Origin: an uncultured delta proteobacterium
GTDB taxonomy: Bacteria > Desulfobacterota > Binatia > UBA9968
Direction of reading: 5' to 3'
Assembly: GCA_963804165.1 (NCBI GenBank)
Contig: CAWDPO010000003.1
Location: 160,001 to 224,000, forward strand
Length of the DNA: 64,000 bases
This document shows positions 17,386-21,116 of this stretch, piece by piece (position 1 is the stretch's first letter; each line of letters opens with the position of its first letter). The notes under the pieces were generated by a model. That model was given only the letters and a program-made list of their open reading frames with translations, was not told where the DNA came from and ran no database searches. Made by a program: the position numbers and the translations under genes.

Positions 17386-18444
17386 TTAGTTGGGCACCTT
17401 ACCGCCCCAAAGCTCCTTTAGAAATCCGGTTTTCTCCAGGCTCTCGGCGAAGCTGTTGTCGACGATCTGGCTGGTATTCTTCACGATCTTGGTTCCGGCG
17501 TCGCGCGCCACGTCAATCGATTCGGTGACGGCGTTGAGCGGCACGACCAGACGCCGGTTCACGTGCTTTTTGGCGTAGGCGTCGTACGATGACTGTAAAA
17601 CATCCTCATCCTGTACTCTCAAAATTTTCGCCACCGCCGCTTTCGCTTTCTCGGGATTGTCTTCGACAAACTTTACAGATTCCGCCAGGGCGGCAACCAT
17701 ACGCTGCACGGTTTGGCGGCGTTCGCGTAATGTTCTGGCATTCGTATGCAGCGAGCTATAGATCGCGGGCAGGCCCAAGTCGTTGAGATGGTAAACGAGG
17801 TTGAAGCCATCTTTCCTGCCGCGAGCGTCCATCGGTGGAGTGAACGGTCCGGAATCAATGACTCCCTGAACGATCGCGTTGTAGCGTTCCGGCTGGCTGC
17901 CGCCCACCGGGCGAATCTGCGTATCCACCAACCCGAACTTTTTCACGAAGACTCGCAACAACCGATACGGTAAACCGCCAACCGATCCAACGCCGATGCT
18001 TTTTCCTCTGAGATCTTGAATGGTCTTGATTTCTTTCCGGGCAATGATCACGTAGGGCAGTCCCACCAAAGGCGACGCGACGAGCATTGCGTCGCTCCCC
18101 GCGGCCATGCCTGGAATCGTTGAGTCGCCGGCGCAGTAGAGAAACTGGATCTCGTCGGTCGCCAGCGCTGTCAGATTGATGTTGGTGCCGGTTCGGATCA
18201 CGACATGTTTGACCAACAGGCCATACTTGGCGAAAAGGTTTTGATCCAGCGCCGTGTACATATGAATGAATCCGCCGCTGGTGGCGCAGGTGGCGACGTA
18301 AACCGTAACCGGCGTTTCTCCCGCCTTCGCGAAATACCCGCCGGTCTGCGAGCGTGCCGGACCGGGCGATGTGAGAAGGATCAGCCAGGTGACAACCGCA
18401 CAAGTCGTGAGTTGCGACGCGTATGGACCAAAAAATCGCTTCAT
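17386..18444 (-). CDS. ABC-type substrate-binding protein, NMT1/THI5-like
   Basis: Signal peptide, LFAKYGL, DLRGKSIGVGSVGG, LEKTGFLKELW; start taken at MKRFF. Confidence 0.85.
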   Translation of the reverse strand: MKRFFGPYASQLTTCAVVTWLILLTSPGPARSQTGGYFAKAGETPVTVYVATCATSGGFIHMYTALDQNLFAKYGLLVKHVVIRTGTNINLTALATDEIQFLYCAGDSTIPGMAAGSDAMLVASPLVGLPYVIIARKEIKTIQDLRGKSIGVGSVGGLPYRLLRVFVKKFGLVDTQIRPVGGSQPERYNAIVQGVIDSGPFTPPMDARGRKDGFNLVYHLNDLGLPAIYSSLHTNARTLRERRQTVQRMVAALAESVKFVEDNPEKAKAAVAKILRVQDEDVLQSSYDAYAKKHVNRRLVVPLNAVTESIDVARDAGTKIVKNTSQIVDNSFAESLEKTGFLKELWGGKVPN

Positions 18445-18586
18445 GGGTTTGACTGGGCCCGATAAAACAATACTTGGTTGTGTTCTGTCAACCGATCTGC
18501 CGTGCAGATTGCCAATGCGCGGCTTGAAAAATCGTCGCGGCGGCACTAACAATCGGTGGCTGCACCCATTGCACAGGAGGTTGGCC

Positions 18587-19663
18587 GTGCTGATTCTCTC
18601 CAATGATGACATCGAGAAAATTTTACCCGTCGGCGCTTGCCTCGACGTGCTCGAAGAGGCTTATCGCGATCTCGGCAACGGCATGGCCGCGACCGTGCCG
18701 CGCTACGATGTTTTCAGCCCGACCAAGCCGAACGAGTTCTACGAGTACAAAACCATGAGCGGTGTATTGCCGAATCGCAACATCGCAGCACTGCGCCTCA
18801 ATTCCAGCGTCGTCAAATGGTACGAGAAAGCCGGCGGCATTCGCAAAGACAAGTTGCCGGTCGCGGGCGGCGACAAATTTGTCGGCTTGGTGATGCTGTT
18901 CAGCACCGAAACCGGCGAGCCGCTGGCGATATTTCCTGACGGTTACGTGCAAAAACTGCGCGTCGCGGGCGCCAGCGCGATCGCGGCGCGCTACCTCGCG
19001 CGCAAAGATTCACGCGTCATGGCGTTGCTCGGCACGGGCTGGCAGGCAAGTGCTCACCTGGTGACGCTGTCGATGATTCGCGATTTAACGCAGGTGAAAG
19101 TTTTCAGTCCGACGCCCGAGTCGCGGCGACGTTTTGTCGAAGAATGGTCGGGAAAGGTCCCGGCACAATTGATCGAGACCGGCAGCGCGGCGGAAGCGAT
19201 CGCCGACGCCGATATGGTGATTTGCACGACCAATTCGATATCGGCCTTGTTTTCCGGCGAAATATTGCAAGCCGGCATGCATGTTTCCTGTGTCAAGCCT
19301 TGCGAGCTCGACGTCACGACTTACAGAAGGTCCGATCCGCTGGTCATTCACTGGCGTGAAGCCAAGCCGTTCCAGATCGCCATCGGCGTCGACCGTCAGA
19401 TGATCCCAGACATCGCGGAAGGTTGGCAACATCCGCTCACGCGCGAAGACTGCGCGATCTGGGATTTTCCGACATTATCTGAATTGGTCAACGGCCAGCA
19501 TCCCGGCCGCGTGAAAGACGATGCGATCAGCTGTTTTTGCAACAACGTCGGTCTCGGCTTACAGTTCGCCGCAGTCGGTAGCGAAGTAGTGGCGCGCGCG
19601 CGGGAAGCGCGAGTGGGGCGGGAAATTCCGACGGATTGGTTTTTGCAGGATGTGCATCCCTAG
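18587..19663 (+). CDS. Ornithine cyclodeaminase / mu-crystallin family protein (second paralog)
   Basis: SD AGGAGG then GTG; LRVAGASAIAARYL, LLGTGWQA, GLGLQFAAVG, GREIPTDWFLQD. Confidence 0.9.
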   Translation: MLILSNDDIEKILPVGACLDVLEEAYRDLGNGMAATVPRYDVFSPTKPNEFYEYKTMSGVLPNRNIAALRLNSSVVKWYEKAGGIRKDKLPVAGGDKFVGLVMLFSTETGEPLAIFPDGYVQKLRVAGASAIAARYLARKDSRVMALLGTGWQASAHLVTLSMIRDLTQVKVFSPTPESRRRFVEEWSGKVPAQLIETGSAAEAIADADMVICTTNSISALFSGEILQAGMHVSCVKPCELDVTTYRRSDPLVIHWREAKPFQIAIGVDRQMIPDIAEGWQHPLTREDCAIWDFPTLSELVNGQHPGRVKDDAISCFCNNVGLGLQFAAVGSEVVARAREARVGREIPTDWFLQDVHP

Positions 19664-19705: not shown

Positions 19706-20050
19706 ATGAACACATTCTGCATCATCCTTTTGTTTTTGCTCTCTGTGTTCGTTTGATCGATACAGGCGCAGATTGAAGGCAGAGTCACTTATCCGACTAC
19801 CGTCGGTTCGACAAGAATTTCGCCGTAAGTAAGAGTGATCCGCAAATACTCGCGCATCGCGGACCAAGAAGCCCTCGAAGAAATTTACCAGCACTACGCC
19901 GTCAAGATCATGCCTAGAGTTCCCTATCCGAAGGGAATTCAAATGGTGCTCGCCGAAGGCCAAGAGCCTCGCCCTGGTAAGTTTATCGACAGCAGCTATG
20001 TGAAAGAGCTGGAGCAGGCGGGATTTATCAAGAAGCTTTACGGCGAGTAG
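19706..20050 (+). pseudogene. Internally deleted NMT1/THI5-type substrate-binding protein remnant
   Basis: Signal-peptide-like start with in-frame TGA, then a jump directly to the SBP C-terminus (VIRKYSRIAD...PYPKGIQMVL...FIDSSYVKELEQAGFIKKLY). Confidence 0.7.
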
Positions 20051-20201
20051 CCGGTCACATTTTCGCGCGATGGATCTTCGACGATCGATTTTATCCCGCT
20101 CGTCGATGACGATACTCTTCCGGCAATTTTGAATATTCGGTTAGAAAAGTTTTTTTCAGCGAGCGGCAACAAGCGGGATACAAAATTTTCACGGATTTTT
20201 A

Positions 20202-20230
20202 TTGACAGTTTGAAACCACTTTCGTAAACT
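20202..20230 (+). promoter_or_regulatory. Sigma70 promoter
   Basis: TTGACA (20202-20207), 17-bp spacer, TAAACT (20225-20230), AT-rich upstream tract. Confidence 0.8.
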
Positions 20231-20236
20231 GCGTTC

Positions 20237-20395
20237 AGCAGGGAAAGGAGGTGGTCCAGACATGATTGATAAATGTACTGTCTGCGAGGTGGCTGAGACC
20301 TAGGCTCTAGGCGGAATCTTTGACGGGGATTCGGGCCTGGAGCCTGGGAATCCCCCTCAGTCCACCTAGGGGTCCGCTTCGGCGGGATTAGTTTT
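20237..20395 (+). ncRNA. Candidate structured small RNA / sORF transcript with extended 16S-complementary tract
   Basis: Own promoter; GAAAGGAGGTGGTCCAG at 20243-20259; long hairpin 20306-20371; TTCG-capped GC hairpin 20372-20388 followed by a T-rich run; no long ORF downstream on this strand. Confidence 0.6.
20262..20303 (+). CDS. 13-aa small ORF MIDKCTVCEVAET (CxxC)
   Basis: ATG placed 10 nt after GGAGG of an exceptionally strong SD; TAG at 20301-20303. Confidence 0.55.
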   Translation: MIDKCTVCEVAET

Positions 20396-21116
20396 CCGCT
20401 GGAGCGGACCTTCTTTTCTTCAACAACTCGAGAGCCGCGGCGGCGGTTTTTCTGGATTGATCGTCGTTACTTTCGCTGGCGGCGTGCAGAGCGATTAAAA
20501 ACTCGTCCGACGGCGATCCTATATTCGCCAGCACGATCGCCGCAACATTGCGCACCCGCAGATCCGAGTCTTCCACGTAAGCTTTCAATAAGAGTGTCTT
20601 CCCGGTTTCTTTGACATCCGGTCTCGGCTTCAGACAGATCACGGCAGCCACTCTGACGGTTGGATCGGCATCGCTCAGAGCGTTGACCAACGCGGTCAAA
20701 CTCGCGGCGTCGTTTAAAATCAGGTCGCGAATACAGTACAAAGCCATCCTTTTTTGATTGGCCGTTCCGCATGCACTGAGATCGATCAGGCGGCTGACGA
20801 CATTGGGATCTTGCCTAGCGATGCGAATCAGCAGCAACGCCATCGCCCAGCGGATGTCCGGTTCGCGGTGATCGAGCGCGTCGAGCAAAGTTTGCACGAC
20901 AGTACCGGTTGGAAAGGGAAGTTGCCCTAGTAGATAGGCGACCGGCCAATAATTTTTGTGTCCAGATTGAGTCAGCCGTTCGTTCAGCAACGCGCGCAGA
21001 TTGGGAGATCGCTCGGCTAGTGGAATGAGCGCATCGACGGCGGCGCGAATCGTCGGCTTGTCGTGATGATCCAAGTCGGCGATCAGCGCGGCGATCTCGT
21101 TATCGTCCATAGTCAT
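20388..21116 (-). CDS. HEAT-repeat (PBS lyase-like) protein
   Basis: Repeated LxDxDxxVRxxAA units. Confidence 0.85.
   Translation of the reverse strand: MTMDDNEIAALIADLDHHDKPTIRAAVDALIPLAERSPNLRALLNERLTQSGHKNYWPVAYLLGQLPFPTGTVVQTLLDALDHREPDIRWAMALLLIRIARQDPNVVSRLIDLSACGTANQKRMALYCIRDLILNDAASLTALVNALSDADPTVRVAAVICLKPRPDVKETGKTLLLKAYVEDSDLRVRNVAAIVLANIGSPSDEFLIALHAASESNDDQSRKTAAAALELLKKRRSAPAEN

Follow-up and report, generated by a model that had tools for sequence, protein, structure and literature searches.

What does a strong promoter make when the next gene runs towards it, and why does the RNA behind it open with a long complement to the 3' tail of 16S ribosomal RNA (rRNA)? These questions were raised by a locus on the + strand of the window analysed here, a 64,000-nt stretch of contig CAWDPO010000003.1 from an uncultured delta proteobacterium of the class Binatia (own genome G000, 7.5 Mb; position 1 is the first letter of the window). 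The element in question is a predicted transcript of about 185 nt (20236-20421), the ends of which were placed from the positions of its promoter and terminator. It carries an extended Shine-Dalgarno (SD) tract, GAAAGGAGGTGGTCCAG (20243-20259), complementary to the 16S 3' tail with one G-U pair, and then a short open reading frame (ORF) of 13 codons plus TAG for the peptide MIDKCTVCEVAET (20262-20303; ATG at 20262, TAG at 20301-20303). Within this ORF lies a second SD-like block, GAGGTGG (20286-20292), the first base of which is 15 nt before the stop codon. Taken together, the results suggested that the element is likely a stand-alone, strongly promoted, ribosome-docking small mRNA of the design known from rreB and Ms_IGR-5.

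The sigma-70-type promoter (20202-20230) consists of TTGACA (20202-20207), a 17-nt spacer and TAAACT (20225-20230). It matches at 10 of 12 positions and was the sole promoter-like site within 19900-20700, and TTGACA-17-TAnnnT was found at a constant distance among the copies of the host's order. The transcript is closed by an intrinsic terminator hairpin with a T-rich tail (20369-20421, stem 20369-20412). An earlier sequence-only reading of the stretch had described the promoter, the 17-nt tract, the 13-codon ORF, the hairpins and the terminator, and all of them were recovered at the same positions or at most 1 base away. Its proposal of a free-standing small transcript agreed with the convergent next gene and the element's own promoter and terminator, and the copies detected across the order and the class showed the element to be conserved.

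Complementarity of the tract to the 16S tail

The host's own 16S gene ends in ...CTGCGGCTGGATCACCTCCTTTCTAAGG, and the longer form of this end is ...CUGCGGCUGGAUCACCUCCUUUCUAAGG. With CUGGAUCACCUCCUUUC of this tail the tract pairs over 17 nt including one G-U, which confirmed the pairing that had been predicted from the typical bacterial tail. An extra G-U at 20242 extends the pairing to 18 nt, and the predicted energy of the tract-tail duplex was -33.7 kcal/mol. In the 7.5-Mb genome, GGAGGTGRTCCA occurred in the element and the rRNA gene only, and the reversed control gave 0 matches. Among 10,022 GGAGG sites on both strands, the element alone reached 18 contiguous pairs with G-U counted, compared with 14 for the next best site and 19 for the rRNA gene, in line with the earlier claim of an unusually long complementarity. 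When Watson-Crick pairs alone were counted, the run of the tract was 11 and not unique in the genome. Elsewhere in the same genome, AAAGGAGGTGATCC (contig C6, minus strand, ~109415 of the reverse complement) is perfectly complementary to the 16S tail over 14 nt by Watson-Crick pairs, the second-longest tract of this kind in the genome, and stands directly before the GTG of an ordinary 208-codon ORF.

Distribution of the element

With a 231-nt query, blastn detected the element in 36 of 41 genomes from the order, the host genome G000 among them, nearly always as a single copy. By family, the element was detected in 19 of 24 genomes of f1, 5 of 5 of f2 and 11 of 11 of f3; the five genomes that gave no blastn match were 84-94% complete. 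In one genome (G009), a second, partial copy (L040 on C581, running off the end of a short contig) was present beside L014 on C617, which is probably an assembly split or a strain variant and not a true second gene. The 34 distinct copies of the order were aligned (alignment A1), and both the first 14 nt of the tract, GAAAGGAGGTGGTC, and CTG.GAGGTG.CTGAGAC.TAGGCT were invariant in 34/34. One row of this alignment and of the alignment A2 used below (L011, from G005) comes from a genome flagged unpublished. The CAG at the end of the tract was kept in f1 and part of f2, and was absent from f3 and some other copies. The bases that would carry the pairing towards helix 45, as suggested in the sequence-only reading, are thus paired in the window's tract but are not a conserved property in family f3.

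With a search pattern free of the SD (TGYGAGGTGNCTGNNNNNTAR), 17 of 18 sampled genomes of the order were matched, as was G000, and the tract was present in all five order copies that were new from this search. In the other orders of the class, the exact SD-free pattern matched 1 of 132 genomes, and that match had no SD upstream and looked like chance. The exact-pattern result is not to be taken as absence, because a covariance model finds diverged copies in these orders. This model (R1, built from A1 and searched with strict filters at E <= 0.01) gave single, weaker matches of 20-35 bits in 42 of the 132 genomes. Sixteen of the 42 matches were examined in detail, and in all 16 the tract pairs over 17-19 nt with G-U counted and over 12-18 nt by Watson-Crick pairs alone, with other orders of the class reaching 17-18 Watson-Crick pairs. 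An in-frame ORF of 13-15 codons was also found in 16/16, and many of these copies have a GTG start that begins with the last G of the tract. Because the R1 copies in other orders carry both the tract and the in-frame ORF, the element family is, as judged by these sequence features, class-wide. The homologs in related genomes for which the sequence-only reading had proposed a search were found in the order (36/41 genomes) and the class (42/132 by covariance model), and the complementarity was kept well beyond GGAGGT, with GAAAGGAGGTGGTC in every order copy and 17-19 nt of pairing, G-U counted, in the other orders. In the copies of other orders (L213-L228), the 60 nt before the tract were also conserved and hairpin-like (GGCCGGUA.CGGCGAUCGGUUCC...); the RNA may start further upstream there, or the region may be a conserved promoter.

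The element was also sought in other phyla, by scanning a collection of species genomes with the pattern AAGGAGGTGRTC, 12-42 nt, TGNGAGGTGNCTG. At least 120 stretches were matched, and 80 titles were listed. Among the matches listed were Mycobacterium and relatives, Streptomyces, Kitasatospora, Saccharopolyspora, Actinocorallia, Streptosporangiaceae and Frankiales, together with Terriglobales, Ignavibacteriales, Dehalococcoidia, Leptospira weilii and one 'Gammaproteobacteria' metagenome-assembled genome (MAG). Also among them were MAGs titled Candidatus Binatia, 'Deltaproteobacteria' and 'Syntrophobacter(ales)', which carried the same element as the order of the window, and some copies of the Binatia/'Deltaproteobacteria' type were nearly identical to that of the window. 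The Terriglobales were represented by four MAGs, one of which (L054, G567) is flagged unpublished. As the cross-phylum copies were selected for the tract and GAGGTG, those two blocks prove nothing in that set. In the Actinomycetes, an exact search with the SD-independent ORF block matched 11 of 201 sampled genomes, including the seed genome G566. All 10 newly found copies had an upstream pairing of 17-18 nt with G-U counted, and the changes in their tracts were A/G only, at positions facing a U of the tail.

Reading frame and RNA fold

The short ORF was compared in 142 distinct copies, comprising the cross-phylum set and the order's own copies. In 140 of the 142, the first start codon to follow the tract was in frame with the GAGGTG block, and the ORF lengths were 11, 12, 13, 14, 16 and 19 codons. 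The stop codon lay 18 nt after the codon preceding GAG in 141/142 (TAG in 135, TAA in 6 and TGA in 1). With the 16 copies of other orders included, the distance from the first G of GAG to the start of the stop codon was 15 nt in 157 of 158 copies. GAGGTG itself was present in all copies, but it was fixed by the search pattern in most of them. The N-terminal residues and the last two residues varied between phyla, and four of the 16 other-order copies had another residue at the 'Cys' position, namely Ser in two and Gly or Arg in one each. Only Glu-Val was invariant in the peptide, and these are the GAGGUG codons. On this comparison, the reading frame is conserved and the peptide is not.

The fold of the RNA was analysed for single-sequence stability and for covariation. 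The 185-nt stretch had a folding energy of -100.7 kcal/mol (z = -7.15), which was equalled by 0 of 200 shuffles. In the alignment of 31 f1-type copies (A2), the structure model paired 93.7% of cells, compared with at most 45.7% with slid partners, and 11 pairs showed changes on both sides, compared with 4.5 +/- 1.3 in shuffles (0/500 reached 11). The outermost helix, P0 (20238-20241, GCAG, with 20282-20285, CTGC), encloses the SD tract and the start codon and was paired in 100% of cells. One of its pairs varied (GC 20, GU 10, AU 1), and by eye GCAG/CUGC of the window becomes CACA/UGUG or CGCA/UGCG in other phyla. Inside P0, hairpin P1 (20257-20263 with 20273-20280) holds the ATG; it was taken from the minimum-energy fold and was paired in 89.9% of cells. 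The first 14 nt of the tract are unpaired in the conserved model, and the last 3 nt are paired.

The 3' domain (20288-20366) is closed by helix P2 (20288-20297 with 20356-20366), which was paired in 93.2% of cells and had 2 pairs with changes on both sides. The 5' strand of P2 is formed by the last five codons of the ORF, so that these codons, GGUGG included, pair with CUCAG.CCACC, and the 3' strand CUCAGUCCACC is similar to the 16S tail. On visual inspection, the N of GGUGNCUG covaries with its partner, both between phyla and among the other orders of the class, where GGUGGUG/CACCACC alternates with GGUGGCG/CGCCACC. Helix Pa (20302-20312 with 20335-20345) begins inside the stop codon; it was paired in 97% of cells, and 4 of its 11 pairs showed changes on both sides. 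The strand GGGGATTC (20325-20332) has two alternative partners, 20348-20355 in a pseudoknot that crosses Pa and 20314-20321 in a nested form. Changes on both sides were found for 4 of 8 pairs in the pseudoknot version and 2 of 8 in the nested version, and the covariation fits both. The pseudoknot is not universal, because family f3 has two plain hairpins in place of the 20314-20355 fold. A tail CCUUCUUUU, common among f1 copies, follows the terminator. The minimum-energy fold pairs this tail with the SD tract, but on the other strand it forms the coding end of the convergent gene for a HEAT-repeat protein.

Known relatives, rival explanations and meaning

At gathering scores, 0 Rfam matches were obtained in the window. 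In a permissive scan, Ms_IGR-5 (RF02471) matched 20237-20417 over model positions 1-184 of 184 with 33.8 bits (E = 2.6e-6 for the region), which is below the curated gathering cut-off of 45. In the genome search the element was the best match to this family (E = 1.5e-5), and the next match scored 13.3 bits. The Caulobacter sRNA family CC2171 (RF01867) scored 21.3 bits against a cut-off of 75, and the element was still its best match in the genome. The RF02471 scores graded down from a Mycobacterium copy (184.7 bits) and a Streptomyces copy (86.5 bits) through copies from Dehalococcoidia (54.8 bits) and Ignavibacteriales (47.5 bits), both above the cut-off, to the order of the window, where an f3 copy scored 40.3 bits and the window 33.8 bits. 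L143 also scored 33.8 bits and a Terriglobales copy 32.7 bits, and an f2 copy and the Leptospira copy gave no match at E <= 0.01. Both Ms_IGR-5 and CC2171 are filed in Rfam as small RNA (sRNA) genes, and Ms_IGR-5 was reportedly first found in an Hfq pull-down study of M. smegmatis.

Like the element, Ms_IGR-5 has a purine tract GGAAGGAGGUGGUCC, a short ORF, UGUGAGGUGGCUG, UAG, a structured domain, AAUYCC..CAG.CACC and a terminator, and the G-U is at the same position in GGUGGUC. Unlike Ms_IGR-5, the element has a host that is not actinobacterial (near-identical copies are in Candidatus Binatia/Deltaproteobacteria MAGs), and its 3' domain differs in size and helices. Expression of Ms_IGR-5 as an sRNA was reported for Streptomyces lividans and S. 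avermitilis (PMC8079986, PMC8780764), and ribosome footprints were observed on its homologues in M. abscessus and M. smegmatis (PMC4974804); the literature found on Ms_IGR-5 lists it as an expressed sRNA and gives no function. The consensus of CC2171 opens with GAAAGGAGGUGAUCCAGUG, the same tail-complementary tract, followed by GUG, but it has no GAGGUG block and nothing beyond the tract aligns convincingly with the element. CC2171 was detected by Northern blot in Methylorubrum (bioRxiv 10.1101/2022.01.24.477521).

The design of the element is also that of the alphaproteobacterial small mRNAs rreB and rreR (Hahn et al., RNA Biol 2017, PMC5711450). They are stand-alone RNAs of ~165 nt with their own RpoD-like promoter and terminator, and 16-17 nt complementary to the 16S 3' end stand just before an ORF of 14-18 codons; in the element the promoter and terminator are predicted, the complementarity is 17-18 nt with G-U and the ORF has 13 codons. 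The rreB mRNA of Bradyrhizobium has 165 nt, a 17-nt SD and a 14-codon ORF. It co-sediments with 30S subunits, is translated weakly, is stabilised once the start codon is replaced, and causes no growth slowdown when overproduced; the extended SD lowers its translation (PMC5711450). Such genes were described there from four alphaproteobacterial orders only. As in rreB, the 5' part of the tract of the element is single-stranded and the remainder lies in a hairpin with the start codon, and in many of the other-order copies, as in rreB, the tract ends on the G that opens the GTG start. In contrast to rreB, the start of the element is ATG, located 2 nt after the tract, and the tract contains one G-U and is not a perfect complement. 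The likeness of the element to rreB/rreR is one of design and of the SD; in sequence, the comparison was with the related family CC2171, which reached its 21.3 bits largely through the tract-bearing start of its consensus. No paper linking Ms_IGR-5 to rreB, or describing the family outside Actinobacteria and Alphaproteobacteria, was found in a literature search in which supplements were not covered, nor was any paper found on the peptide strings of the short ORF. The papers found to cite the rreB study dealt with other subjects, as judged by title and abstract. The sequence-only reading had not recognised the element as a described family. This view has to be revised in the light of the sub-threshold RF02471 match and the published rreB/rreR design, and by sequence comparison the element is a sub-threshold member of a known, functionally unexplained kind (Ms_IGR-5/rre-type small mRNAs) and not a new kind.

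Expression was assessed in public sequencing data. Parts of a 301-nt query around the element were present in 23 public runs, mostly soil libraries filed as RNA, with query shares of 0.29-0.46, equal to a piece of ~90-140 nt. Four RNA runs from four studies were examined over 19950-20700. Three studies gave one contig each, of 264 nt on 20242-20439, 164 nt on 20255-20414 and 175 nt on 20258-20432, and these contigs covered the element and nowhere else in this region; the fourth run gave no contig on the stretch and carries no evidential weight. The contigs were 90-95% alike to the element, with the differences clustered in the terminator loop. They are a weak hint that a discrete small RNA is made by relatives in soil, and the element itself is probably expressed. 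For the discrete small transcript expected by the earlier reading, the element-only contigs from three studies amount to no more than this hint, as they belong to relatives and show neither strand, ends nor level.

The next gene, encoding the HEAT-repeat protein (20388-21116, minus strand), is convergent with the element, and its stop codon (20388-20390) sits in the loop of the element's terminator. The terminator hairpin probably ends both transcripts, because it contains this stop codon. A HEAT_2-repeat gene adjoins the element in f1, f2 and f3 (window 20388-21116, minus; L026:2707-3324, minus; L032:1838-2458, plus). In f1 and f2 it lies downstream in convergent orientation, and in f3 it lies upstream in the same orientation as the element. 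A conserved neighbour gene was sought across phyla and none was found. Two Mycobacterium-type copies have a class IV aminotransferase as neighbour. In one Terriglobales MAG (L054), a transfer-messenger RNA (tmRNA) gene lies ~3 kb upstream of the element (L054:1024-1385, minus) and a tRNA gene ~160 nt downstream (L054:4832-4903, plus); rreB of Bradyrhizobium likewise adjoins a tRNA gene (PMC5711450). Further upstream in the window, ORFs for an NMT1-like protein (17386-18612, minus) and an ornithine cyclodeaminase-like protein (18371-19663, plus) overlap head to head by ~240 nt, and the true start of one of them probably lies further in.

The conserved features could also be accounted for in other ways. 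If the locus were an ordinary micropeptide gene, its product would be the peptide of 11-19 residues and the long SD would merely serve expression, which would agree with the frame kept in 140/142 and 16/16 copies and with a C-terminal half that reads (T)C-E-V-A/T-x-x in many phyla. However, the only invariant residues, E-V, correspond to the GAGGUG block by which most copies were selected, the 'Cys' is exchanged in 4 of 16 other-order copies (S, S, G, R), the N-terminal and last two residues differ between phyla, and the conserved codons coincide with strands of helices P0 and P2; we consider this explanation unlikely. The very strong micropeptide synthesis offered as an option by the sequence-only reading is also unlikely, since the extended SD lowers translation in rreB (PMC5711450) and only the E-V codons are invariant. 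Rather less probable again is a trans-acting base-pairing sRNA, the purine tract of which would target pyrimidine-rich stretches of other RNAs and not the 16S rRNA. The filing of Ms_IGR-5 and CC2171 as sRNA genes and the unpaired state of the tract in the conserved fold speak for it, but in distant phyla the tract mirrors each base of the 16S tail over 14-19 nt, an in-frame start codon always stands at SD spacing after it, and the relatives show ribosome footprints and 30S co-sedimentation in the papers cited above. The order of short ORF, alternative helices and terminator does have the look of an attenuator. A cis-acting leader of a neighbouring gene is nevertheless very improbable, as the next gene is convergent with its stop overlapped by the terminator, no co-oriented gene lies downstream of the terminator, and the neighbours differ between phyla. 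The same very low probability applies to a chance strong SD in an intergenic region, which is ruled out by the conservation across the order, the class and other phyla.

For a ribosome-docking small mRNA, which remains the likely explanation, a course of events can be proposed. The 30S subunits would dock on the tract, as demonstrated for rreB in Bradyrhizobium, the element would be translated at a low rate by analogy with the weak translation of rreB, and its turnover may be ribosome-dependent as in that RNA. A ribosome that reached the stop codon would have melted the closing helix P2 and helix Pa. When the stop codon occupies the A site, 5-6 nt separate the end of GAGGUG(G) from the P-site codon, the same spacing as between an SD and its start codon. 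From this initiation-complex spacing it follows that a second pairing of the 16S tail with the RNA could occur. The tail-like strand (CAG..CACC), once freed, could then pair with the first SD, and this strand would swap between the two SD-like blocks. In this manner the RNA would hold or cycle one ribosome at a time, and the ribosome would set the fold and stability of the RNA. In prfB, the gene of release factor 2 (RF2) with its programmed frameshift, an SD-like block in the ORF a few bases before the stop likewise acts on the ribosome at the stop. The spacing in prfB is 3 nt, with a +1 shift into a long ORF, compared with 5-6 nt in the element, where no conserved downstream frame was seen.

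Several points weigh against this interpretation. Hairpin P1, which holds the start codon, shows no compensatory changes. In most cross-phylum copies the conservation of the SD and GAGGUG is partly circular, because the search pattern itself fixed both, and the SD-independent sets are smaller. The RNA-library contigs come from relatives, as their 90-95% likeness indicates; they reveal nothing of strand, ends or level, and DNA may be present in RNA libraries. The second pairing and the handling of one ribosome at a time are deduced from geometry alone. Binding of 30S subunits is carried over from the alphaproteobacterial rreB, a look-alike or at most a putative homologue, and the related Rfam family CC2171 reaches only 21.3 bits against its cut-off of 75. 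Simple titration of ribosomes would be unlikely by the same analogy, because overproduction of rreB had no growth effect. Of the roles put forward in the sequence-only reading, capture of 30S subunits is accordingly the best-supported mechanism, by analogy with rreB only, and a general sponge role is doubtful, as overproduced rreB did not slow growth (PMC5711450).

A bolder reading, to which we would give little credence at present, is an ancient checkpoint for the 16S 3' tail common to at least six phyla. Docking would need a full-length, free tail, GAGGUG would re-engage the tail at UAG, and the fold or lifetime of the RNA would report intact, unoccupied tails or termination dependent on release factor 1 (RF1). 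If this were true, tail maturation, tail damage or hibernation would be coupled to a downstream response.

RNAs of such design have been known for more than 10 years as 'sRNAs' in mycobacteria, Streptomyces, Caulobacter and Bradyrhizobium, with their function unassigned. What is new here is the breadth of the family, which comprises the whole class together with Terriglobales, Ignavibacteriales, Dehalococcoidia and Leptospira, and the design is not peculiar to Alphaproteobacteria or Actinobacteria. Also new is the pattern of selection, which appears to keep the tract, the frame, a further SD-like block set at a constant distance before UAG and a helix opened by translation, and not the peptide. 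These results lead to a concrete hypothesis for the family, that of an mRNA which would engage the 16S tail of the ribosome at initiation and termination alike.

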